From a virus (taxonomy: Duplodnaviria; Caudoviricetes), in the IMG/VR virus record IMGVR_UViG_3300020463_000061, positions 1-34,682 of that record: 34,682 nucleotides of DNA; one strand, written 5' to 3'. Shown piece after piece: positions 1 through 28,791 of this stretch; positions within the stretch are counted from its first letter, which is position 1, and each line of letters starts with the position of its first letter. Both the position numbers and the translations under genes were made by a program. The notes beneath the pieces were generated by a model. That model ran no database searches and was not told the origin of the DNA. It saw only the letters and a list, made by a program, of their open reading frames with translations.

Positions 1-223
1 TCTTATATTTTCTAATAGACTGTTCACCCCTTGCGTATAACTTCAACCGATGGAACTCTCTCCATTGGTCATAGAATCTGCACCCATTTCCATCTTTACG
101 AAACCATTCATATTGAATGGCTTGTCCTATCATCAATCCGTATTCATCTGTTGCTTTTTCTGCATCCGAAACGAATTGACTTGGGAAACCTGCAGATGAA
201 ATATTTATCTTTACATCTTTCAT
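1..223 (-). CDS. Portal protein, N-terminal part (runs off the window edge)
   Basis: Manual translation MKDVKINISSAGFPSQFVSDAEKATDEYGLMIGQAIQYEWF...RLKLYARGEQSIRKYK; start overlaps the terminase stop (ATGA); position directly downstream of terL and resemblance to flavobacterial phage portals. Confidence 0.7.
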   Translation of the reverse strand, partial: MKDVKINISSAGFPSQFVSDAEKATDEYGLMIGQAIQYEWFRKDGNGCRFYDQWREFHRLKLYARGEQSIRKYK

Positions 224-2448
224 CTAATAATTTGACTTATATTGCCTTTGTTGCTATACCTTGCAAAGTTAATCATAATTCTTGACTCTTTTCGTTCAGG
301 TTGATAAAGGTGTTTTTGACAAGCCATAATGGCTAGTCCCGAACTTATTGATGCATCAAACTTAGTTCTATTACTTATATCAAACCTTGCCCAATCCTCT
401 AAAGTTCTATTAAAATACATTTGACCCATATCTCCTGAATCTTGCATTCCTACAAAATTTTCTATGTAAGATTCAATGGCAGCAGCGTGAGCTTGTTTTA
501 CATCTTCACTTGAGTTTGGTATCCCACCCAACTCTTTTTCTGTTTTAGATAGTTTGATGAATTTCTTATCAGGTCTATTCATACAAAATCCTCTATATCC
601 TCTGTTTTTAAAATGATAAAGCAAACGAGGCTTATTGTTTTCAATAAGAATTGGCATACCAAAAAACACACAAGCCATTAAAACATCTTCGAAAAAAATC
701 TCTGCGGTTTGTGGTCTAGCTATATATTCCAAGAAAAATTCATTTGCCGGTGCCTCTTCCATACTAAATTTAGTAAGTCCATGCAAAGCTCCGTTCGACC
801 CCACACCTCCAACCGTTCCGCTTATATCATACGAGTCACAACCAAAAGCTCCAATGTGTTCATTGCCGGGATGAAATATTCCATTTTTTTTAATTACATT
901 ATTTTGAATATTTAAGTTGGGAACCCATGTAATCTTAAACCTACCCCTTTTATCAGGAGAAAATGTGACCTTAGAATCTTTTATACCATTCTTCCAAGAA
1001 AAACTTCCCTGTGTTATATAATGCTCAGATAACATTGAATCATTATAATCAATTTGTTGATACAGTCGAGTAAGATTAAAAAGAGATTGTTTACTTTCAT
1101 CACGGAAAGCGTGTGATTCAGTTCTTGGAAATTGTCTATAATATTCGTTTAATGCGTCGGGGTCTTTTTTTAAAGACTCTACTTCATTCTCCCAATAATC
1201 AATAGCGCCCATTTGTATGTCCTCTTCATCTATGCCTCTTACTATTGAATTGGTTGTAAAGACGGGGTTTCCATATCTATCAATGAACCCTTCCATATTC
1301 CACTCCATTGGTATGAACAAACTATAAAGCCCGGTTTTTGTTTGACCGTTTGCGTTTCGTTGTGTTACATCTGAATCGTAATAAAGTTGTTTGAAATTAT
1401 TTCCACCTTTATTTAATGCATTCGATGTAGAACCCATCATACATTTTCCTATGACTTTACTACCTAATCTTAAACAAGTTTTTGTTACCCTCCAATTGTT
1501 TAATATATTATTTGGTTTCAACCACTTTCCACTTTCATCGTGTACTAACAATAAAAGTTTTTCTCCATCATAAGAGTTGTCATCTGTGTTTTTCCAATCA
1601 ATAGTTGTATCTAAGCCTTGTATTTCATCTTGCTCAATGTCATACATATTCTTTTTTGTAATCTTTGCTGCAGGAACTCTATATGCTAATTCTGTTTTCG
1701 GCTTATCCATACCATCCATAATAGGTCTGAAAAAGAAAGGTAATCTACTATTTATTGGTACCACTTTATCAGTAAACATTTTTTTAGCATCTGAACCTGT
1801 TTTAGATAATATACCTACTCTTGAATCTTTAGCTAACGTTCCGGTATGCACACATTCAGATGAAGACATAAAAGAAAAACCTGAACGTCTAATTTTTAAA
1901 TAAATCATTCCAAAACTTCTTTTGTCAGCTTTACACGCTTCCCAAAAAATATACAACAATCTATTAGCTTCTCGGTAGTCAGGATACCCAACATCTATTT
2001 GGGTCCATTGTAAATACATATAATGAGCTCCCGTAATGTATGTAGGTGTACCGTAATTTTTAAACCAATACCCCTGCTCTCTATAATCAAACTCCTTTTC
2101 AATATAATCAACCCAAAGATTTTTAAATGTTTTTGGCATTTCATTCCATTGAAAAATAGAGTTAATTCTATTCAAACTCTTGGGTAATTCTTTTCGCTCC
2201 CAATATTGTTCTTCTTTGCTTTTGTGTCTTTGAAGACACTTTTTGGGGGCAAGAGGTAATGCAATAGTTAAATTATTAATTTTAATAATATCTCCTATTT
2301 GACCGGTCTTTGATATAACTATAACATCATATTTAGAGTTATATCCATATACCCAAGACCTGTTTCGGTTTTTATTGGTGATTACATTTTTTGGTACGTA
2401 ATCAATAAGAACTTTATATAAAACGCTATTTTGACCTTCTTTCAGCAA
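220..2448 (-). CDS. terL: Terminase large subunit
   Basis: 742 aa; Walker A-like LKIRRSGFS, Walker B LLVHDESGK, coupling motif MMGSTSN, C-terminal nuclease motifs FGCDSYD and KFDASISSG. Confidence 0.9.
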   Translation of the reverse strand: MLKEGQNSVLYKVLIDYVPKNVITNKNRNRSWVYGYNSKYDVIVISKTGQIGDIIKINNLTIALPLAPKKCLQRHKSKEEQYWERKELPKSLNRINSIFQWNEMPKTFKNLWVDYIEKEFDYREQGYWFKNYGTPTYITGAHYMYLQWTQIDVGYPDYREANRLLYIFWEACKADKRSFGMIYLKIRRSGFSFMSSSECVHTGTLAKDSRVGILSKTGSDAKKMFTDKVVPINSRLPFFFRPIMDGMDKPKTELAYRVPAAKITKKNMYDIEQDEIQGLDTTIDWKNTDDNSYDGEKLLLLVHDESGKWLKPNNILNNWRVTKTCLRLGSKVIGKCMMGSTSNALNKGGNNFKQLYYDSDVTQRNANGQTKTGLYSLFIPMEWNMEGFIDRYGNPVFTTNSIVRGIDEEDIQMGAIDYWENEVESLKKDPDALNEYYRQFPRTESHAFRDESKQSLFNLTRLYQQIDYNDSMLSEHYITQGSFSWKNGIKDSKVTFSPDKRGRFKITWVPNLNIQNNVIKKNGIFHPGNEHIGAFGCDSYDISGTVGGVGSNGALHGLTKFSMEEAPANEFFLEYIARPQTAEIFFEDVLMACVFFGMPILIENNKPRLLYHFKNRGYRGFCMNRPDKKFIKLSKTEKELGGIPNSSEDVKQAHAAAIESYIENFVGMQDSGDMGQMYFNRTLEDWARFDISNRTKFDASISSGLAIMACQKHLYQPERKESRIMINFARYSNKGNISQIIR
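264..271 (-). promoter_or_regulatory. Bacteroidota-type -7 element (TAACTTTG) upstream of portal
   Basis: Matches TAnnTTTG about 40 nt before the portal start; no -33 TTTG. Confidence 0.45.
2224..2239. repeat. 16-bp palindrome variant GTGTCTTTGAAGACAC (inside terL)
   Basis: One mismatch from GTGTCTTTAAAGACAC. Confidence 0.85.
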
Positions 2449-2707
2449 ACCCTTGTTTTGTTTCTACATTATTCCCCTCACCTAATTCTATATTTTCTTT
2501 TTCTTCTTCAATCTTTTTTAAAATGTCAAAAGCATCAAAGATGCAAAGTTTCTTTGTGGCTGCAGCATTTTTTAATCTATCTGCGGCTAAATCATCTTCA
2601 GGGTCAGGTTTGATTATCTTTTCTTTTGCAACCTTTATAAGTTGTTCTACCGCCTGATGACCTGCCTCTATTATTTTTAACTTAACATACTTAATTTCTT
2701 TACTCAT
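2426..2707 (-). CDS. Small helical protein, candidate terminase small subunit
   Basis: Immediately upstream of and overlapping terL; likely start ATG at 2707 (MSKEIK...); function inferred from position only. Confidence 0.45.
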   Translation of the reverse strand: MSKEIKYVKLKIIEAGHQAVEQLIKVAKEKIIKPDPEDDLAADRLKNAAATKKLCIFDAFDILKKIEEEKENIELGEGNNVETKQGFAERRSK

Positions 2708-3270
2708 AATACTAAAGTTATTGAATGGTCGTACATTCTCCAAAGTTTTTCGCCATCTATATTAAACTCATATTCTTGTTTCGGTTTATAACAAATCTTA
2801 TCCCCTACTTTTACCCCTTCGTTTTTTAGGGTTTCATTTAATATTGCCATTTCTGCCATTAATGGTTCATTACTAAATGGTTTATAGATATAACTTTCTT
2901 CTGTTGGGATAGGTTTTACAAAACAATACCTATCATATCCATACCATTTGTTATTTTTTTTAAACGCATAGAATTGTTCGGAATCAACAAAGAATATATC
3001 ATCTCTAAAAAAACTACGACCACTTCTGCGCCGACCTCTCATGTCATTGTAAAACTTAAATACATTGTGATGAACCAAAAGGGTGTCACCCTTTTCAATA
3101 GGTCCACAGTAATTAATGGGTGTTTCTAAAACAATCGCTTCTCTATTAGATGCGGATGCATCTTCTTCTGAAGTGCTTATAATTAAATCAACACCTTCTA
3201 TTTCTTTAGTGTTGTTATAACGATTTTTATTTAGGGGTTCAACTATAAATTGATATATAGATTTCATCAA
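2704..3270 (-). CDS. GroES-like fold protein (possibly tandem co-chaperonin-like domains)
   Basis: 188 aa; two GroES-like segments (FIVEP...IEKGDTLLVHH and CFVKPI...VKVGDKICYK...EFNIDGEKLWRM). Confidence 0.55.
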   Translation of the reverse strand: MMKSIYQFIVEPLNKNRYNNTKEIEGVDLIISTSEEDASASNREAIVLETPINYCGPIEKGDTLLVHHNVFKFYNDMRGRRRSGRSFFRDDIFFVDSEQFYAFKKNNKWYGYDRYCFVKPIPTEESYIYKPFSNEPLMAEMAILNETLKNEGVKVGDKICYKPKQEYEFNIDGEKLWRMYDHSITLVL

Positions 3271-5990: not shown

Positions 5991-5998
5991 CAAAGATA
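5991..5998 (-). promoter_or_regulatory. Late-type promoter -7 element TATCTTTG
   Basis: ATAGTATCTTTGT, 20 nt upstream of the 5970 start. Confidence 0.6.
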
Positions 5999-11394: not shown

Positions 11395-11829
11395 TTGAGC
11401 GCAGACTATTTAAAGTATTGGAGGGTAATACGTCAATATGTAAAAGTGAAATACGGAATTAGTCAATCAGAACTTGACGTGTTGCTCTTCTTAAAATCAG
11501 AACCTTATTTTTCTAAAGACAAGTTTCAAGAGTTTGATAGAATCCTGTCATGGGATGAAAACAGATTTGATAAACTACTAAGAGATGGTTGGGTTGAGGT
11601 GTTCAGAAAAAGGAAAGGTAAAACAAAAGCATTATATTCTTTATCATATAAATCAGTAAGACTCTTGACCTCGGTTTATAAAAAACTTAATGGTGAAGAG
11701 ATGCCTACTTCTCCTTCTCAAAATCCAATGTTTTTAAAAAATGTTTCCTATACTGACAGAAGATATAGAGAAGCTATTAAGAATATGAATGAGTTTATTC
11801 GACAACAACGACATCACGCTCCTGAATAA
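11395..11829 (+). CDS. Winged helix-turn-helix (MarR-like) DNA-binding protein
   Basis: YGISQSELDVLLFL...RFDKLLRDGWVEVFRKR...ALYSLSYKS pattern; only credible + strand gene in the late block; start uncertain (TTG 11395, ORF track 11353). Confidence 0.6.
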   Translation: MSADYLKYWRVIRQYVKVKYGISQSELDVLLFLKSEPYFSKDKFQEFDRILSWDENRFDKLLRDGWVEVFRKRKGKTKALYSLSYKSVRLLTSVYKKLNGEEMPTSPSQNPMFLKNVSYTDRRYREAIKNMNEFIRQQRHHAPE

Positions 11830-12052
11830 TAGTAACCATTTCTCCATTGATTACAAGAGTGTATGAGTTTCTCGTGTCGTAGTATATAATATCATTTTCT
11901 TTTAAATGAATTACATCAGAACCGGGAAGTATTATTTTTCCTTTTTGATACCTAAATGCTTTTGCATCAGTATTAGAAAGTAACAGACCGCTTTCAGTTG
12001 TAATCTGTTCTTCTATTTTTTCAATTACTATGTTCTTCCCTATTGCTTTCAT
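11795..12052 (-). CDS. groES: Co-chaperonin GroES
   Basis: MKAIGKNIVIE..E.ITTESGLLLS...G.I...G..V..LKEND.I.Y...I.GE...IIQERDVV. Confidence 0.85.
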   Translation of the reverse strand: MKAIGKNIVIEKIEEQITTESGLLLSNTDAKAFRYQKGKIILPGSDVIHLKENDIIYYDTRNSYTLVINGEMVTIIQERDVVVVE

Positions 12053-12293
12053 ATTGTCCTTTAATTAACCAATTACCTTCTAGGTCCTTTATAGCATAGC
12101 CTTGTCTCAATAATAATTTAATAGCGTGAGTCTGTTGCTTCACTCTGTCTTTTATTTTGTGTGAATGAAACAATTCCCCCTTTATTGGATTTTGAATAAC
12201 TATACAGTTATTTTCTTCTAGCAGTTTTTGCGCTGCGTCTATTTCTCTTTGTTTACTTCTATACGCTTCAAATATTTGATTACTTATTACCAT
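12021..12293 (-). CDS. Hypothetical protein between groEL and groES
   Basis: 90-aa ORF overlapping the groES start. Confidence 0.6.
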   Translation of the reverse strand: MVISNQIFEAYRSKQREIDAAQKLLEENNCIVIQNPIKGELFHSHKIKDRVKQQTHAIKLLLRQGYAIKDLEGNWLIKGQYESNREEHSN

Positions 12294-12404
12294 CTTTATT
12301 TAATTTAGATTTATCGTTCTTTAATATAGATTTTTCTTTTTCAGATTTATTTGGAAATATTTTATCTATAAATTTTTTCATTCCATCTGTATGTTCTCGG
12401 TTTC

Positions 12405-14018
12405 TCATTTTGATGATGCTTCATAGCTACGTGCCATTGTCACGATAGCATTAGTTGATAGTATCGTTACGGCAACAGACACTGCATTTTGCAGAGCTTG
12501 TCTTGTTACTTTAACAGGGTCTATTACTCCAAGAGTCATTAGGTATCCGTACTTTTCATTTTTTACATCATACCCATAGTTTGCACCTTTGCTATTTTTG
12601 TATATCTCCTCAAGTTTTAAACCTGCGTTTATTAATATCTGATTCATTGGGGCTGACAATGATTTAGATAAAATTGCATACGCAATTTTTTTTGAAAAAT
12701 TTTCCTCACTGCTTTCTTGAACCGCACAAGACTTGGCATGATTATATAAGGCTAGTCCTCCGCCCGGAAGTATACCTTCTTCAAGTGCGCTTCGTACTGC
12801 ACATACCGCATCATCTACTCTATCAAACAATTCTTTTTGTTCTAAGTCTGTATTACCACCAACATATACTACACCTATACCTCCGGTTAGCGAAGCTATC
12901 CTTTGGTTTATAAAATCTTTATCTTGTTTCTTTGTGGCTTCTTCATAAGCCTCATGAAGTTGTGCAACTCTTTCTTCAACTTCTTCATTGGAAGAATCTT
13001 CATCTTTCACGATGACTGTTGAGTCACGTCCAACTATCACCTTGGAACAATGACCCAAATCGTTGAAACTAATCAAACTCAAATCATCGCCTGTCTTTTC
13101 GCTGAAGTAGGTTGCTCCTATGCTTATTGCAATGTCTTGCATTAACTCGTGTTGTCTGTATCCAAAATCCGGAGGGACTATGTTACAAATCTTTAAACCA
13201 TTCTTTACTACGTTAGCCGCCAAAGTATTTATTACGTTTGTAGAGCACGGAGCTATAATCAAAAGTTTCTTACCTTCTGATATTATTGGTTTTAATATAT
13301 TTTCTATTTGTAGTATGTTACTTATCTCTCCATCACAAACTAATACGTAGGTGTCTTCAAAGACACACTCATCTCTTTTTTGGTCGTTGATAAATAAGCC
13401 TGATGAATACCCTCTCTTTATTTTTATCCCCTTAGTGGTTTCGTAATATGTAGATGAGGTTTTACTTTTTTCTACAGTGACTACTCCGTCCTTGCCTACG
13501 CTTTCGTAAACGTCCGCAATAATTCCACCAACTGTTTTATCGTTGTTGGCTGATATAATGGCAACGTCCCTTAGTCTCTTTTCGTCTAGCTTTTTGCCTT
13601 TTACTTTTAAAGACTTTGAAATTAATTTCGTTATCTCTACCAAATGTCGCAAGACCTCTGTTCGATTTACTTTAGCATCAATTAACTTTGTACCTGCATC
13701 CACTAGAGCTTCTGCTAATACAATAGCAGTTGTGGTTCCATCACCTGCTGAGGTAGCCGTTCTGTCTGCAGCTTCTTTCATCATTCTAACCGCTAGGTTT
13801 TCTACCGGGTCTAATAATGAAATAGACTTTGCTACAGTAACACCATCTTTAGTTACTGTTATACCGTGTAAGTGTTCGGGTGATTCTATTAGAACAGTAT
13901 TACCTCTAGGTCCAAGTGTGGACTTTACTGCGTTTGCTATTTGTTTTATTCCTTGAATTAACTTGTCTCTCCCTTCATCTGAGAAATGAAGTTGTTTGGG
14001 ATTGAATCCTTGTTGCAT
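12405..14018 (-). CDS. groEL: Phage-encoded chaperonin GroEL
   Basis: 537 aa; VKSTLGPRG, TVTKDGVTVAK, AGDGTTTA, EEGILPGGG, GVIDPVKVTR; lacks the GGM tail. Confidence 0.96.
   Translation of the reverse strand: MQQGFNPKQLHFSDEGRDKLIQGIKQIANAVKSTLGPRGNTVLIESPEHLHGITVTKDGVTVAKSISLLDPVENLAVRMMKEAADRTATSAGDGTTTAIVLAEALVDAGTKLIDAKVNRTEVLRHLVEITKLISKSLKVKGKKLDEKRLRDVAIISANNDKTVGGIIADVYESVGKDGVVTVEKSKTSSTYYETTKGIKIKRGYSSGLFINDQKRDECVFEDTYVLVCDGEISNILQIENILKPIISEGKKLLIIAPCSTNVINTLAANVVKNGLKICNIVPPDFGYRQHELMQDIAISIGATYFSEKTGDDLSLISFNDLGHCSKVIVGRDSTVIVKDEDSSNEEVEERVAQLHEAYEEATKKQDKDFINQRIASLTGGIGVVYVGGNTDLEQKELFDRVDDAVCAVRSALEEGILPGGGLALYNHAKSCAVQESSEENFSKKIAYAILSKSLSAPMNQILINAGLKLEEIYKNSKGANYGYDVKNEKYGYLMTLGVIDPVKVTRQALQNAVSVAVTILSTNAIVTMARSYEASSK
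13351..13366. repeat. 16-bp palindrome variant GTGTCTTCAAAGACAC (inside groEL)
   Basis: One mismatch from the perfect palindrome. Confidence 0.85.
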
Positions 14019-14564: not shown

Positions 14565-14595
14565 GTAAAAATTTTGTTAGGTGTATATAGTATTT

Positions 14596-14820
14596 GGGTC
14601 CCCCCCACCCCACGGCGCCGGACCCTGCTGCGGAGGTCGGTTTTTTTTGTCGGGGGGGGTCGTCTTTTTTGCGCTGCGGTTCTGATTTTTTTGGCTTTTT
14701 GTGTGGTCCCTTTGCCCCTGTGACCTGTGACCTGTTGACCTCGTCCCCGTTCCCCGTTCCTTTGCCCCCGTTCCCGCCGGTAACCGCTACCGGTACCGGC
14801 TCCCGTCCCCCGTTATCCCT
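14596..14820. other. GC-rich non-coding island at the strand switch (candidate genome end / packaging region)
   Basis: Abrupt GC rise, homopolymer C/G/T tracts, CCTGTGA and CCCCGTT repeats, located between divergent gene blocks. Confidence 0.5.
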
Positions 14821-14834
14821 TACAAAGTGAGTTT

Positions 14835-14850: not shown

Positions 14851-14984
14851 GGAGATTAAAGGGAACAACAGAGCGACCAAAATTAAACCATTATAAAACT
14901 AAGGGAACAAACAGATATTAAACCACTGATTAACAGAGAGAACAAAAGAAAATTTAAAAAAATGTAAAAAAATACCGTTTTACC

Positions 14985-15015
14985 TTTGGTAGTATGTAGA
15001 ATTAAACTATATTTG
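14985..15015 (+). promoter_or_regulatory. Early promoter TTTG-N19-TATATTTG
   Basis: Canonical Bacteroidota -33/-7 spacing; followed by 5' hairpin GTTGGACA-ACGAG-TGTTCAAC. Confidence 0.8.
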
Positions 15016-15727: not shown

Positions 15728-16768
15728 ATGAGAAATTTATCTAACACCGGTATAAAATTTGAAACTTTGGGGGACACCTCAAGACGTGGTCAAATTGTCG
15801 GCTACCACTGTAAGCCAAATCCGGTTGACCGCTCGAAAGCGGAACGAATAGACATCAACGGGTTAAAAGCCGTGGACCGTCAGAACGTCAAAATTGACGG
15901 GGACGAATACGAAAGCCGTTTCAAAATCGGTATGGAGTTCGAAAAGAACCGTTTACACCGTGGCGCCGTTGAAGAATACCCGTTGTTCTGTGGGTTCGAG
16001 AAAGACAGTTCTTGCGGGTTTACTCAAAGTCAGGGCGGTTATGAAGCGGTTACCCATATACTACCGCTTGTCGGTCCTAGTATGTGGCGAACAAAGGTTT
16101 TTAATATGTTTTACGAAGCACGTAAAATTATTGATGATAATTACAGTCCGTCAAACAGTCGTTGCGGTGGTCACATTACCTTATCTGTTGACGGTATGAG
16201 CGGCACGGAGTTAATGAGCAAAGTAAGAAAATTTGCTCCCGTTATCCTCTCAATATTCCGACACCGTTTGAACAACGGCTACTGTATGGGAAATCCTCAA
16301 ATGCTTGACAGTGAAAGGGACGGGGTCAATTCAAGAAATTACAACGGCTCCCGAAAATACGTGGTTTGTAAAAATACGGGGTTCGGTATCGAATTTCGTT
16401 TGCCGTCACGTTTTACATCTGTGAAACAAACCATAAGACGGTACGAAATTATGTACCACCTCTTAGACTTTGCGGTAAACCAACCCAATGCGACATTGCA
16501 CAAATTCGGTAACACGTTGAAACCGATTTTAATTTCTATGTACGACGGGGACATTGACAAAGTGGATGATGTTTTGGAGTTGGCAAAACATTTTGCGAAG
16601 TTTATGAAAACGGGCAAAGTCAATATGCACACCGCTCCGTGGTTAGAGGGTTGGTGGTCACGACGTAACCGTAATTTTGGAAGTTTTAAACACTGCTACC
16701 AACGAAACTTTAGACCGACGAGCGAGACGGTATCCGAGTGGCTAGATACCAACGGGTACGACCGTTAA
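15728..16768 (+). CDS. Putative amidoligase (COOH-NH2 ligase, glutamine synthetase-like fold)
   Basis: FKIGMEFEK, EKDSSC, GYEAVTH, RCGGHITLS, GIEFRLP motifs typical of the phage putative amidoligase family. Confidence 0.75.
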   Translation: MRNLSNTGIKFETLGDTSRRGQIVGYHCKPNPVDRSKAERIDINGLKAVDRQNVKIDGDEYESRFKIGMEFEKNRLHRGAVEEYPLFCGFEKDSSCGFTQSQGGYEAVTHILPLVGPSMWRTKVFNMFYEARKIIDDNYSPSNSRCGGHITLSVDGMSGTELMSKVRKFAPVILSIFRHRLNNGYCMGNPQMLDSERDGVNSRNYNGSRKYVVCKNTGFGIEFRLPSRFTSVKQTIRRYEIMYHLLDFAVNQPNATLHKFGNTLKPILISMYDGDIDKVDDVLELAKHFAKFMKTGKVNMHTAPWLEGWWSRRNRNFGSFKHCYQRNFRPTSETVSEWLDTNGYDR

Positions 16769-16773
16769 CAAAA

Positions 16774-16800
16774 AGACCTTAGCACGTCTCTAAACTGCTA
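16774..16800 (+). ncRNA. Compact H-type pseudoknot abutting hammerhead 1
   Basis: AGAC(16774-77)/GUCU(16786-89) crossed by UAGCA(16780-84)/UGCUA(16796-800). Confidence 0.5.
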
Positions 16801-16849
16801 CCGTCGGCGGATGAATGTCCGCCCTGAAGAGTTCAAAAGAACGAAACGG
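16801..16849 (+). ncRNA. Type III hammerhead ribozyme 1 (cleavage after GUC, C16805)
   Basis: CCGUC | GGCGGAU-GAAU-GUCCGCC | CUGAAGA | GUUC-AAAA-GAAC | GAAA | CGG: complete canonical core. Confidence 0.92.
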
Positions 16850-16874
16850 AAACTTTAATTTAATAATAATAAAA

Positions 16875-17096
16875 ATGAAAACTTTAAACATCATTCAAAA
16901 CACACTTTTATCAATCATCACACTGTTTGTAATTTCTACCTCTATGCGTTTGCTATGGCATATCATAACAACCGAGGGTCCCGGGCTTACAATCGGTTCA
17001 ATTAGTTTTGGCTTAATTATGGGGTCGTTCTTTGCGTTCCTATATTATGCGGTCATCACTTTGGTGGTTAACCTATGGAAAGAAACAATAGCATAG
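16875..17096 (+). CDS. 73-aa two-TM membrane protein
   Basis: MKTLNIIQNTLLSIITLFVISTSMRLLW...FGLIMGSFFAFLYYAVITLVVNLWKETIA; lies wholly between hammerheads 1 and 2. Confidence 0.7.
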   Translation: MKTLNIIQNTLLSIITLFVISTSMRLLWHIITTEGPGLTIGSISFGLIMGSFFAFLYYAVITLVVNLWKETIA

Positions 17097-17113
17097 GCAG
17101 AGTCTAAGGGGTT

Positions 17114-17129
17114 GTGTCTTTAAAGACAC
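17114..17129. repeat. Perfect palindrome GTGTCTTTAAAGACAC, extended by GGGG/CCCC (17108-17135)
   Basis: Hairpin ends at the base before hammerhead 2. Confidence 0.95.
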
Positions 17130-17135
17130 CGCCCC

Positions 17136-17184
17136 CCGTAACGGGATGCGTGTCCCGTCTGATGATACCAAAAGGTTGAAACGG
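17136..17184 (+). ncRNA. Type III hammerhead ribozyme 2 (cleavage after GUA, A17140)
   Basis: CCGUA | ACGGGAU-GCGU-GUCCCGU | CUGAUGA | U-ACC-AAAA-GGU-U | GAAA | CGG. Confidence 0.85.
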
Positions 17185-17203
17185 AAACTTTAAATTTAAT
17201 ACA

Positions 17204-17407
17204 ATGATAAAATATCCGAGTATCTATGAAATAGTAGGACCGTGGTCCAATGAAGAAACCACACAATGTGTTATTGAAAAAATACACACCGAGAGTTATG
17301 AAACCAACAAAGGTTACATCAACAAGAATTATTGTTTTTGTAATGCAGCCACCGCAAAAGTTGGCGACGAGATAAAAGTAAAGAAAAGATTTTTGCAAAA
17401 CTTTTAA
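17204..17407 (+). CDS. Hypothetical 67-aa early protein
   Basis: ATG 20 nt after hammerhead 2 in an A/T-rich leader. Confidence 0.65.
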   Translation: MIKYPSIYEIVGPWSNEETTQCVIEKIHTESYETNKGYINKNYCFCNAATAKVGDEIKVKKRFLQNF

Positions 17408-17408
17408 T

Positions 17409-17582
17409 ATGGAAGCGCTAAAGTCTTATACAATTTACTACAAAGGAAAGCCCGTCTCAAGAGAGGCGGGTTATACCAAGTACCACGCCCTAGACAAAGC
17501 GTATACAAATTTGTCTCAAAAGTACAAAGGCATCGAGAGAAAAAACCTAGACACCCAAAAAAATAAGTTTGGTTATGTCTAA
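17409..17582 (+). CDS. Hypothetical 57-aa protein (not in ORF track)
   Basis: MEALKSYTIYYKGKPVSREAGYTKYHALDKAYTNLSQKYKGIERKNLDTQKNKFGYV. Confidence 0.55.
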   Translation: MEALKSYTIYYKGKPVSREAGYTKYHALDKAYTNLSQKYKGIERKNLDTQKNKFGYV

Positions 17583-17599
17583 ATTTTGTCGTATCTTTG
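17568..17599 (+). promoter_or_regulatory. Early promoter TTTG-N20-TATCTTTG
   Basis: Canonical Bacteroidota elements upstream of the GATase gene. Confidence 0.75.
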
Positions 17600-17619
17600 T
17601 TTAATGTTAATCGAGTTCT

Positions 17620-17635
17620 GTGTCTTTAAAGACAC
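17620..17635. repeat. Perfect palindrome GTGTCTTTAAAGACAC
   Basis: Between promoter and ATG (operator-like position). Confidence 0.95.
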
Positions 17636-17654
17636 CGCTCACAAATTTAATTTT

Positions 17655-18743
17655 ATGTGTATAATTATAATCAAACAGAAAGGCAAAGTTGTGCCTAGAG
17701 AAATCCTCAAAACATCTTCAAGAATCAATCCTCACGGGTTGGGCATCGTTTGGCTCGACACATTCGAGACCACGTACCACAAGTCAAAAGAGTTCAAAGT
17801 ATTGGACAACGACAGACCTTACATCGCTCACTTTAGATACGCAACAGTTGGGAAAGTTTGCAGAGCAAACACACACCCGTTTGTATGTGGACATAACAAA
17901 GACGAGTTGTTTATGATGAACGGTACGGTTCACGGTTACGGTAATAAGAATATGACAGACACCGAGGACCTAGCAATAAAGTTGGGCAGAACACCACGTC
18001 ACACGTGGAAACAATCACTTGCCAAGTTCGATGCACGGTTCGTTGCAATCAACACACGCACACGGTCGTTTCAAATCTTTAACAAGCACCTCTACACATT
18101 GAGAGACGGGGTTTGGTATTCAAAGACCAACGTTCTACAAGACAACCTAATGGCAGTCTATGGAACATTGCGAAAGGGTAACGGTAATTATTACCGTTAC
18201 TTGCGTAATGCAAAGCACATCGGAACCGGCAAGACCAAATACAAATACCCTATGATAAGCAACGGTATACCGTATGTCATACCCGAAAAGGGAAAGGGTC
18301 ACAACGTAGTTGTTGACGTGTTCAAAGTCAGTGAAACCACGTTGCAGAAGGTGGACGGTTTGGAAGGTCATCCGAAGTGGTACAAGCGGAGACAGATACT
18401 CGTTGAGGTTAACGGCAAGGAGTACCCGTGTTGGTTGTATTTCAACGACGGAGCAAGAACGCAGTGGAACGGGTCAAACCACATTGCTGACTTTAACAAC
18501 AGACCAAAGCCAAAATACACCTATCACACATATCACGCACCAACAAAGGACGTGTACAAATTTGAAGATGCAGCACCCGTGTGTACTCAAATAGATATGT
18601 ATAATGAGTTTGACCGCAGCAAAGAAAAACCAATTTGCATTGACTGTTATCACGACCTAGAGTTTGACGGGTTTGCTAACTATCATTGCAATGGTTGTGA
18701 CGGTTGGTTCACGGAAGAAGAAGTGTTACGTTTCCAAGATTAA
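17655..18743 (+). CDS. Class II glutamine amidotransferase fused to gamma-glutamylcyclotransferase and a C-terminal Zn ribbon
   Basis: True start MCIII (N-terminal Cys nucleophile); NPHGLG, AHFRYATVG, NTHPF, MNG, TDTE; then AVYGTLRKG.GN...VDGLEGHP.WY.R; CxxC...CxxC tail. Confidence 0.85.
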   Translation: MCIIIIKQKGKVVPREILKTSSRINPHGLGIVWLDTFETTYHKSKEFKVLDNDRPYIAHFRYATVGKVCRANTHPFVCGHNKDELFMMNGTVHGYGNKNMTDTEDLAIKLGRTPRHTWKQSLAKFDARFVAINTRTRSFQIFNKHLYTLRDGVWYSKTNVLQDNLMAVYGTLRKGNGNYYRYLRNAKHIGTGKTKYKYPMISNGIPYVIPEKGKGHNVVVDVFKVSETTLQKVDGLEGHPKWYKRRQILVEVNGKEYPCWLYFNDGARTQWNGSNHIADFNNRPKPKYTYHTYHAPTKDVYKFEDAAPVCTQIDMYNEFDRSKEKPICIDCYHDLEFDGFANYHCNGCDGWFTEEEVLRFQD

Positions 18744-18756
18744 CCAAAGTAGGCTC

Positions 18757-18772
18757 GTGTCTTTAAAGACAC
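18757..18772. repeat. Perfect palindrome GTGTCTTTAAAGACAC, extended hairpin 18749-18779
   Basis: Hairpin base overlaps stem III of hammerhead 3. Confidence 0.95.
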
Positions 18773-18776
18773 GGGC

Positions 18777-18829
18777 TACCGTTCAGGAATGTGTATTCCT
18801 GCTGATGAAGTCGAAAGACAGAAACGGTA
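18777..18829 (+). ncRNA. Type III hammerhead ribozyme 3 (cleavage after GUU, U18783)
   Basis: UACCGUU | CAGGAAU-GUGU-AUUCCUG | CUGAUGA | A-GUC-GAAA-GAC-A | GAAA | CGGUA. Confidence 0.85.
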
Positions 18830-18847
18830 ATCTTATAATAAAAAATT

Positions 18848-18982
18848 ATGAAACATAAAAGACAAGAACTGATAAACGAAATAGAAATTCTAAAACAACA
18901 CTTAATTGATATTGATGATGTAGATACAAACCCAAACGCAACGGAAGTATTAAATGATGTTATTAACGAACTAAAAAAATAA
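18848..18982 (+). CDS. Hypothetical 44-aa protein (not in ORF track)
   Basis: MKHKRQELINEIEILKQHLIDIDDVDTNPNATEVLNDVINELKK, directly after hammerhead 3. Confidence 0.6.
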   Translation: MKHKRQELINEIEILKQHLIDIDDVDTNPNATEVLNDVINELKK

Positions 18983-20663: not shown

Positions 20664-20864
20664 ATGGCACAGTCAAAAAAAATGTTTCACGAAATGCGTG
20701 AACAAAATCAGGACCACATCGACGACGAATATAGATATGAAATGTGGATGGGTCAGCTTAATAACAAAAGCAAAATTAATAATGTTAAATCCGCTAAAGA
20801 AGAACTAGACGATTTGTTTGAAACGTTTGGAAGAATCTTTGGCAACATAAATAAAATTCAATGA
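20664..20864 (+). CDS. Hypothetical protein
   Basis: Likely start MAQSKK after AATCAAATCAA. Confidence 0.6.
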   Translation: MAQSKKMFHEMREQNQDHIDDEYRYEMWMGQLNNKSKINNVKSAKEELDDLFETFGRIFGNINKIQ

Positions 20865-21148
20865 AAGAAAAAGCATTCGATGAATACGTAACAAAAGTTT
20901 GTGACCTATTCAACTTAACTCCATCAGAGTTATTTACAAAATCAAAACGCAGAGATATAGTAGATGCCAGGCATCTACTATATTTCTTATGTTATAAGAG
21001 ACCTATGCAGATACGTTATATCCAAGAGTATATGGGTTCCAACGGTTATCAAGTGGGACATTCAACAATCATTCACGGCATTGAGCAAGTGAAAGAAAAA
21101 GTAACTGAGGATAACGATTATGAACTCACCTTCAATCAACTTGCTTAA
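20861..21148 (+). CDS. DnaA domain IV-like helix-turn-helix protein
   Basis: KSKRRDIVDARHLLYFLC...GHSTIIHGIEQV matches the DnaA C-terminal pattern. Confidence 0.75.
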   Translation: MKEKAFDEYVTKVCDLFNLTPSELFTKSKRRDIVDARHLLYFLCYKRPMQIRYIQEYMGSNGYQVGHSTIIHGIEQVKEKVTEDNDYELTFNQLA

Positions 21149-27973: not shown

Positions 27974-28313
27974 TTTATATTATGAAGTAGACGATTGGTT
28001 TGTAACTCAACTTAAAGAGTTTCCACGGCTTGTTGGCATAGAAATAGCAGCACAAGTAAACTCATCGTACGATTCACTACCGCAAAAAAATGGATGGTCA
28101 CAGACCGTAGGTGGTGTATGCAAAGACTTTAAACCACCTGTATATTTCGAAGTTGAATATTTAAACCAAGAGGATGAGCCCCCATTCTTTCTCGACGTAG
28201 TAACTATTGAGGTAGACGATTACCTTGATTATATAATAGAAAAAAACACACTTAAATCTAAATCAAATGCAATCACTAATAAAAACAAACAGAACGTTTC
28301 ATGTCCTCGCTAA
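27933..28313 (+). CDS. Hypothetical acidic protein
   Basis: ORF 27870..28313; ATG at 27933 or 27939 more likely. Confidence 0.6.
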   Translation: MNMALKQRYIEAIDLYYEVDDWFVTQLKEFPRLVGIEIAAQVNSSYDSLPQKNGWSQTVGGVCKDFKPPVYFEVEYLNQEDEPPFFLDVVTIEVDDYLDYIIEKNTLKSKSNAITNKNKQNVSCPR

Positions 28314-28791
28314 AATTATAGACCAATCTCTTAACATAGATATTAAAACATCTTGCAGAAAAAGAGAAACTGTAAACGGGAGAATGATTTATTATAAAAT
28401 TCTAAACGAGTTAAAGTTTGGATGTAGTGCAATCGGAAAAAGTTTAGGTAAAAATCACGCTACTGTCCTGCACGGACTAAAACAGTTTGGTGATTTATGG
28501 GTGACAGAAAAGCAACTGAGAGAGGAATACTATCTGATAAAAGAAATGTTTTTCAATGAAAGCAATTTAGATGCACACGAGTCTTATAGTAGAAAAGAAT
28601 TATTTAAAAGCGTTAAATATTTGGAAAACGAAAATAAAAGTTTAACTTTGGAAGTAGAACGGTTGAACAATCGTCTAAATTCAAGAAACAAATTTAGCGA
28701 CACTATTGAAATTCTTGAAAGAAGACACCTCAGTTTAGACCAATTAAATAAAATTAACTCAAAACTAACACATATTATAAATGGTGTATAG
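28267..28791 (+). CDS. DnaA domain IV-like HTH protein with coiled-coil tail
   Basis: RKRETVNGRMIYYKI...SAIGKSLGKNHATVLHGLK. Confidence 0.75.
   Translation: MQSLIKTNRTFHVLAKIIDQSLNIDIKTSCRKRETVNGRMIYYKILNELKFGCSAIGKSLGKNHATVLHGLKQFGDLWVTEKQLREEYYLIKEMFFNESNLDAHESYSRKELFKSVKYLENENKSLTLEVERLNNRLNSRNKFSDTIEILERRHLSLDQLNKINSKLTHIINGV

Follow-up and report, generated by a model that had tools for sequence, protein, structure and literature searches.

Hammerhead ribozymes in phage genomes are an established class of self-cutting RNA. Perreault et al. 2011 (PMC3088659) reported clustered prophage hammerheads that flank individual genes or small groups of genes, and proposed that they process transcripts to operon- or single-gene mRNAs. 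Three of these clusters cleaved in vitro and one cleaved in E. coli; the same paper describes members with a U10.1·U11.1 mismatch and a weak stem III, and cites a halovirus 5′ end mapped at most 3 nt from a cut site. Two reviews call the in vivo role of phage and bacterial hammerheads open (PMC6765202, PMC6155905). Here we describe three such elements, HH1, HH2 and HH3, in a 34,682-nt tailed-phage contig (IMG/VR record IMGVR_UViG_3300020463_000061, positions 1 to 34,682; the whole of this stretch is called the window). A first-pass annotation of this DNA had presented the three as a regular and previously uncharacterised array that cuts the early mRNA of the phage. The array is not novel, because its layout and the proposed processing role have been in print since 2011: as in the published clusters (PMC3088659), several hammerheads on one strand flank single genes or short blocks. 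Nor is it regular, with spacings of 335 and 1643 nt. The arrangement is thus already known; HH1 is canonical, HH2 belongs to a tested variant type, and HH3 is a variant for which we found no report.

All three elements lie between genes on the + strand and span 49 nt each, as annotated: HH1 at 16801–16849, HH2 at 17136–17184 and HH3 at 18779–18827. A pattern derived from them matches the window three times and, even when three mismatches are allowed, none of 100 dinucleotide shuffles. The core nucleotides C3 U4 G5 A6 N7 G8 A9, G12 A13 A14 A15.1, U16.1 and H17 are present in every element. The cleavage triplet is GUC in HH1, GUA in HH2 and GUU in HH3, in line with the GUH of the first reading, which places the predicted cuts after 16805, 17140 and 18783. 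Loops close stems I and II, stem III is open and the pairs covary, as in type III hammerheads. Stem I differs in sequence between the elements and yet pairs fully in all of them; this part of the earlier description stands, although a stem of 6 bp with a UGNNUR hexaloop is a better reading than the 7 bp that it assigned. Stem III, also corrected here, measures 4 bp in both HH1 and HH2, and in HH3 it has 6 bp. Loops I and II read UGAAUG/AAAA (HH1), UGCGUG/AAAA (HH2) and UGUGUA/GAAA (HH3), so the claimed RAAA form of loop II is found throughout. At the sequence level these loops fit the UNmYN/RNnA motif, that is, the tertiary contact between a UN3YN hexaloop I and an RNnA loop II described by Dufour et al. 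(PMC2632901). Only 31–33 of the 49 bases are identical between the three elements, and 25, 19 and 20 nt intervene before the next ATG behind HH1, HH2 and HH3, respectively. Judged by core, fold and covarying stems, HH1, HH2 and HH3 are genuine, well-supported type III hammerheads, as had been claimed.

The three belong to a large family, which we collected with patterns that fix geometry and core and leave the pairing free. IMG/VR contains 117 loci of the CCG/CGG form, corresponding to 94 distinct sequences with a fully paired stem I in 94/94, and GTDB contains 23 family loci. The CUG/CAG form occurs at at least 130 loci (about 380 estimated), with 101 distinct sequences and a fully paired stem I in 101/101 among the matches listed. 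The mismatched combination CCG/CAG was found at 0 loci, as compared with these 117 and at least 130. For metagenomes we used a pattern that omitted the cut site and was therefore blind to the triplet. It returned at least 125 loci (about 1600 estimated), and among the matches listed there are 121 distinct sequences: 120 carry GU at 16.2/16.1 (the remaining one has Ns), none carries G17, and stem I is fully paired in 120. Pooled over all sets, at least 327 distinct members were fetched, and they form one compact family. An alignment of 80 sequences (77 of 111 diverse sequences chosen from 223, together with the three copies of the window) gave a covariation score of 0.845 versus 0.227 for shuffled and at most 0.123 for slid alignments. 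All six stem I pairs vary on both sides in this alignment, in which the stem III columns are largely set by the search patterns. The suggested loop–loop contact is also borne out, since loop II ends in A in 140/140 members of one set and in 101/101 of another (the latter among the matches listed), a feature that the patterns had not asked for. Fold, loops and triplet are, by these comparisons, under strict purifying selection.

The first-pass annotation had also proposed to look for conservation in related genomes. The relative that we label L118 retains all three hammerheads at orthologous sites, and its HH3 orthologue keeps GUU and A·A while carrying a compensatory change from C-G to U-A in stem III. 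The alignment between the window and L118 ends at 17207 and at 18843, immediately after HH2 and HH3, respectively, at sites of gene insertion or replacement.

A feature overlooked in the first reading is the first pair of stem II (10.1–11.1), which is G-C in HH1 only, U·U in HH2 and A·A in HH3. Because this position is mismatched in HH2 and HH3, a strict hammerhead scan of the window and Rfam see HH1 alone, and we therefore file HH2 and HH3 as core variants rather than as members of the consensus. With the Rfam model Hammerhead_3 (RF00008), the check that the first-pass annotation had named, HH1 was recovered with 40.6 bits (E 1.3e-5), which is under the gathering score of 48.5, and HH2 and HH3 were unreported at E up to 1. 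The top-scoring relative reaches 46.7 bits, likewise short of this cut-off. A match to snoR07 (E 0.83) is attributable to chance. A scan that recovered the positive control, phage LUZ24, detected no additional type I hammerhead in the window; the type II scan of the window was run without a positive control.

Given that a conserved pair is mismatched and that Rfam misses both elements in the window, HH2 and HH3 might be decayed, inactive copies of HH1. We consider this very unlikely: U·U is found in 84 and A·A in 9 of 222 distinct family members, stems are intact and the triplet matches the pair, both elements are kept in L118, and the U·U member of Pseudomonas phage PaP3 is listed as active, being named in the legend of Figure S6 on active core variants (Perreault 2011, PMC3088659). 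The PaP3 motif, which, judged by eye, matches oligo JP126 of Table S1 in that paper, resembles HH2 in its 49-nt geometry, GUA triplet and U·U pair. HH2 is identical to it at 41/49 nt and to the hammerhead of phiIBB-PAA2 at 43/49. A blastn search with HH2 leads to Bruynoghevirus phages, and 76 records match the leader region, of which 75 are Pseudomonas phages, including PaP3, phiIBB-PAA2 and Clew-1. We expect with high confidence that HH1 cleaves, with only slightly less confidence that HH2 does, and HH3 probably cleaves too.

Every element in the window is directly preceded by a hairpin, which the first-pass annotation did not mention. The one ahead of HH1 (16780–16800, + strand) is weak (−3.9 kcal/mol) and of the AGCA...AAACTGCT type. 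The hairpin of HH2 (17108–17135, +) is built on the palindrome GTGTC-N6-GACAC (−17.0 kcal/mol), and that of HH3 (18752–18777, +) on the same palindrome lengthened by G·U pairs (−17.6 kcal/mol). This is a trait of the family: the 40-nt stretch upstream of the hammerhead reaches a folding energy of −5 kcal/mol or less in 127/135 cases of the 140-member set, versus 25/135 for the stretch downstream. Two replicates gave the same picture among the matches listed, with 74/101 versus 13/101 in the 101-sequence set and 90/117 versus 27/117 in the metagenome set. The sense strand forms the stabler hairpin in 90 versus 37 of 136 cases (shuffled difference 0) and contains 123 G·U pairs versus 55 on the other strand. 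The hairpin sequences themselves are of unrelated types, and GTGTC-N6-GACAC accounts for 59/140. A second type, AGCA...TAAACTGCT, shares the slot of the palindrome at 16780–16800 of the window and at loci L122, L126, L203, L207, L273, L279, L281–L284, L287 and L291. The gap between hairpin and stem III is 0–1 nt in 108/135 cases; since a shifted-window control did not discriminate, coaxial stacking of the hairpin on stem III remains a guess. The hairpins do not qualify as intrinsic terminators, as they have no U tract and pass straight into CCG, and no terminator-like site is listed on the + strand between 14520 and 20478. Re-pairing of the freed 3′ tail with the upstream hairpin was rejected as well (1.79 nt versus 1.67 nt for permuted tails, p 0.39).

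On the downstream side, an ATG that opens at least 30 codons follows within 150 nt in 130/140 members, at a median distance of 24 nt, and none of the 140 hammerheads lies inside a long open reading frame (ORF). The 99 ORFs downstream group into 65 clusters; 80 of these ORFs encode 120 amino acids or fewer. Fold, conservation, triplet selection, upstream hairpin and distance to the ATG all back mRNA processing, the role that the first-pass annotation had proposed and that we also find the likeliest; transcription and cleavage are what we infer. With moderate confidence we propose that a protein-free cut gives hairpin-protected mRNA units, as do T7 RNase III sites or the synthetic insulator RiboJ. 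The cassette would consist of a hairpin, a type III hammerhead and an A/U-rich leader with the start codon. Host polymerase would begin to transcribe the + strand block at about 14981, and a further candidate promoter lies at 17592. Hammerhead cleavage leaves a 2′,3′-cyclic phosphate and a 5′-OH. The upstream mRNA would thus end in the hairpin followed by five or six nt and be protected, and the downstream mRNA would start with its 5′-OH on stem I, hairpin-capped and equipped with a standard leader. A short stem III of 4 bp would dissociate after the cut and free the A/U-rich leader. Cuts at HH1 and HH2 would set free a unit of 335 nt (16806–17140) for a single 73-residue gene. The gain may lie in mRNA stability and context-independent translation, and small accessory genes could be swapped behind the ready-made leader.

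The same cuts could be real and instead lower or time expression. The core classes (GUC/G-C, GUA/U·U, GUU/A·A) would then set junction-specific rates, and the parts of the message would be uncoupled and destabilised. The window does hold one hammerhead per core class, the class depends on the site, the weak stem III competes with upstream pairing, and Perreault 2011 (PMC3088659) considered slower phage variants as possibly regulated. Yet hairpins are predicted at both new ends, and protection therefore fits better than decay; in addition, the site preference may be plain inheritance, and the fixed 49-nt motif has no visible ligand-binding domain. We regard an expression-lowering role as unlikely. 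Circularisation is another fate that the released pieces could have: a chimeric ribozyme might re-form through the common stem III and ligate the ends to circular mRNAs. Since all window copies are of the CCG/CGG form, the 335-nt unit could pair end to end, and 27/38 adjacent pairs in the family are compatible in this sense. However, 11/38 are mismatched, for which reason we mostly reject the idea; with 10 cases, the incompatible order (CAG upstream, CCG downstream) shows no avoidance, and spliced or circular products were sought and not found by Perreault 2011 (PMC3088659). Self-circularisation is accordingly given very little weight.

The palindrome offers a further explanation for the junctions. 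GTGTC-N6-GACAC (16 bp) occurs 12 times in the window and 0 times in 100 shuffles. The copies lie at 2224, 13351, 14835, 15694, 17114, 17620, 18757, 20032, 21895, 22836, 25994 and 27228; they are intergenic as well as intragenic and lie in both orientations with respect to transcription. We think it likely that the palindrome serves as a DNA operator and, once transcribed, also as a hairpin in RNA, with two DnaA-C-like helix-turn-helix proteins (20861–21148 and 28267–28791) as candidate binders. The hammerheads could then be near-neutral or selfish passengers in junctions where only the palindrome is functional. In agreement with this idea, the palindrome marks most early junctions of MW202828 (14 copies in 20.9 kb), where no hammerhead was found in the 20.9 kb examined despite the presence of both the amidoligase-like and the glutamine amidotransferase (GATase) genes with palindromes, and the presence of hammerheads is patchy. 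Several observations speak against passengers: the strict purifying selection on fold, loops and triplet in at least 327 distinct sequences, the three orthologous copies kept in L118 with a compensatory change, and the fact that the slot is also filled by unrelated hairpins, including some with UUCG and GNRA loops. On this evidence passengers seem quite improbable.

The tie to an amidoligase/GATase locus, which the first-pass annotation had emphasised, is common in the clade and not obligatory. Among 119 ORFs upstream of hammerheads, 28 are homologues of the 346-residue amidoligase-like gene and 17 are homologues of a gene that joins GATase to gamma-glutamyl cyclotransferase (GGCT), the window's own genes counted, which is why we consider this locus favoured; the absence of obligation follows from MW202828. 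Pairs of hammerheads 301–335 nt apart directly after the amidoligase-like gene, with room for one small gene, were noted in L004, L065, L077, L092, L094, L118 and the window.

Several points weigh against hammerheads as mRNA processing elements in this clade. Cutting must be dispensable, because MW202828 has like genes and no hammerheads. The remaining breakpoints between the window and L118 lie away from the hammerheads. Hairpin or nearby ATG is missing in some members, several of them on Patescibacteria contigs, and the ATG of PaP3 and phiIBB-PAA2 is only 0–2 nt behind the motif. HH2 and HH3 fail the 10.1–11.1 pairing criterion of Perreault 2011 (PMC3088659). Finally, when 40 nt of upstream sequence are added, the probability of stem III as computed by ViennaRNA, a model that leaves out tertiary energy, drops from 0.68 to 0 in HH1, from 0.6 to 0.35 in HH2 and from 1.0 to 0.75 in HH3.

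Evidence that phage hammerheads cut in vivo may already exist for LUZ24 (AM910650). This phage contains a type I hammerhead near 2411–2485 with a predicted cut after C2480, listed in Dataset S1 of Perreault 2011 (PMC3088659). Table S4 of Putzeys et al. 2024 (PMC10914365) reports an ONT-cappable-seq 3′ end, T004, at 2480 on the + strand of LUZ24, listed as a termination site without a predicted intrinsic terminator. T004 coincides exactly with the predicted cut, and an exact match by chance would be expected in about 26 of 91,000 cases. The word "ribozyme" is absent from the main text of that paper (PMC10914365), and our literature search found no paper on the LUZ24 ribozyme or on the match between T004 and the cut site, which does not establish absence from print. 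This match speaks for in vivo cutting by phage hammerheads as a class and not by the HH1–HH3 family; that the LUZ24 end belongs to a type I ribozyme outside the family is a further point against extending it to processing in the window. LUZ24 shares with the window an intergenic hammerhead of the early region just before a start codon and differs in topology; in its bases 1–3000 the type III leader motif was not found. phiIBB-PAA2 carries the type I motif of LUZ24 too, near 2443.

The pair at 10.1–11.1 is associated with the nucleotide at the cut site. Among 222 distinct members, which include sequences among the matches listed and whose counts are uncorrected for descent, C17 occurs with G-C in 87 cases, with U·U in 5 and with A·A in 1; A17 with U·U in 73, G-C in 36 and G·U in 1; and U17 with A·A in 8, U·U in 6 and G-C in 5. 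In the 140-member set, U·U accompanies C17 in 1/66 cases versus 39/74 without C17. Among the matches listed, a pair other than G-C is found with C17 in 5/38 versus 52/63 with other nucleotides in the 101-sequence set, and in 5/59 versus 50/62 in the 121-sequence set, of which 92 are new. A dedicated scan for GUU with A·A gave 17 loci and 10 distinct sequences, all with paired stems I and II. Class also varies with site: behind the amidoligase-like gene 30/46 hammerheads are C17/G-C, and behind the GATase–GGCT gene 12/24 are A17/U·U and 4/24 U17/A·A. Seventeen identical stem I arms are found with differing 10.1–11.1 pairs, and in small, thinly supported trees of upstream genes sister taxa differ in core class (15/46 and 14/24 hammerheads, namely those with an upstream ORF of at least 200 residues in the locus). 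Because identical arms bear different pairs and sister taxa differ, these data suggest that core class has switched repeatedly, via A17/G-C.

A more far-reaching idea, which we regard as doubtful, is that of a portable natural gene insulator. A cassette of 3′-protecting hairpin, self-cutter and standard leader would have spread over phages of Bacteroidetes and proteobacteria and onto Patescibacteria chromosomes. Its co-adapted classes (C17 with G10.1-C11.1, A17 permitting U·U, U17 with A·A) would represent an undescribed coupling between cut site and stem II that tunes the cleavage rate at each junction. In GTDB, 17/23 family hits (loci L119–L141) are titled as Patescibacteria groups. Ten Patescibacteria loci were annotated; several lie amid housekeeping genes, such as polA/fpg (L119), polA (L123), a PNPase-like gene (L134) and miaA (L137), where no phage genes were seen. 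Our literature search found no report of the A·A/GUU core, of the coupling between N17 and 10.1–11.1 or of Patescibacteria hammerheads; absence from print is not established thereby. The parts of Perreault 2011 (PMC3088659) consulted likewise do not describe A10.1·A11.1 with GUU, the N17 coupling, or an upstream hairpin as a family trait, and Dataset S1 of that paper may list marine members of the HH1–HH3 family. If the coupling is catalytic, it would refine the hammerhead consensus and explain why many natural members are missed by Rfam and strict descriptors.

The window is a whole 34.7-kb tailed-phage contig with genes for terminase, tail spike, holin, amidase, GroEL/GroES, primase and helicase. 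Phage GroES and GroEL are encoded at 11795–14018 (−), and an extra PHROG match to "co-chaperonin GroES" lies at 2704–3270. The primase is partly similar to those of Flavobacterium, Polaribacter and Cellulophaga phages. Together with TAnnTTTG elements before several genes, this similarity points to a Bacteroidetes host; we take TAnnTTTG and TATCTTTG-type promoter elements to be the Bacteroidetes consensus. By this consensus, a candidate −7 element, TACCTTTG, at 14981–14988 (+) heads the + strand gene block, and a candidate host-type promoter (TTG-N20-TATCTTTG) lies between HH2 and HH3 at 17569–17599 (+). The motif TATCTTTG stands before genes in intergenic spots at 5998, 8399, 9603 and 14564 (−) and at 17592 (+), all candidate host-type promoters. 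A sigma-70 scan was uninformative (21 sites versus 15.6 ± 4.4 by chance). The "early" timing and the single polycistronic transcript assumed by the first-pass annotation are presumptive, with a candidate internal promoter between HH2 and HH3.

The 346-residue gene upstream of HH1 (15728–16768, +) is called amidoligase-like as a lead only. It has no PHROG match and matches no Pfam profile at E values up to 10; its ESM Atlas score is 0.97 to a cluster in which 12% of the members carry PF12224 (Amidoligase_2), and its relative in L118 is 85% identical. Between HH1 and HH2 lies a hydrophobic ORF of 73 residues (16875–17096, +), retained between the same hammerheads in L118. Two small ORFs of 67 and 57 residues without family matches follow HH2 (17204–17582, +). 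The gene upstream of HH3 (17655–18743, +) encodes a class II GATase-like domain (PF13230, E 5e-5, slightly under the cut-off) and GGCT (PF06094, E 4e-21). The 44-residue ORF behind HH3 (18848–18982, +) is unmatched in L118. A search for RNA data sets containing this genome listed none. Three metatranscriptome runs from the same sample yielded one 377-nt contig at 14601–14972; the elements are uncovered, which weighs neither way. The stretch 14590–14830 is GC-rich and non-coding, contains short repeats, lies between divergent gene blocks and is possibly an origin or genome end; it is the only part under this RNA-library contig, possibly through carry-over of DNA. None of the 125 metagenome loci listed has a contig that starts at the cut site; three contigs start 1–3 nt ahead of the motif.

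These elements do not constitute a new kind of system, and they make the question of hammerhead function testable, through cultured members and an RNA end at the LUZ24 cut site. Kinetic work could draw on the three core classes that the window brings together, and the compact motifs are candidate insulator parts for Bacteroidetes. With the viroid- and satellite-type RF00008 family they share type III topology, core, UN3YN hexaloop I and an A-ended tetraloop II. Unlike RF00008, the window elements are DNA-encoded and intergenic, with a 4-bp stem III, no rolling circle and a score under threshold. At the early RNase III sites of T7, a polycistronic early transcript is cut between cistrons and left with a structured 3′ end. 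We liken these sites to the window elements by function only, as a ribozyme core replaces the long irregular duplex. The T7 sites need a host enzyme and yield 5′-phosphate and 3′-OH ends, whereas hammerheads work without protein and yield 5′-OH and 2′,3′-cyclic phosphate. RiboJ, a cis-cleaving ribozyme derived from sTRSV that is placed before the ribosome-binding site to give identical hairpin 5′ ends, follows the same principle (Clifton et al. 2018, PMC6206723). In E. coli its presence increased mRNA levels roughly 2-fold and protein levels by 2- to 10-fold, which shows that cuts of this kind are able to increase and standardise expression (PMC6206723). RiboJ is engineered and carries its extra hairpin downstream of the ribozyme, whereas the extra hairpin of the window cassette is located upstream.

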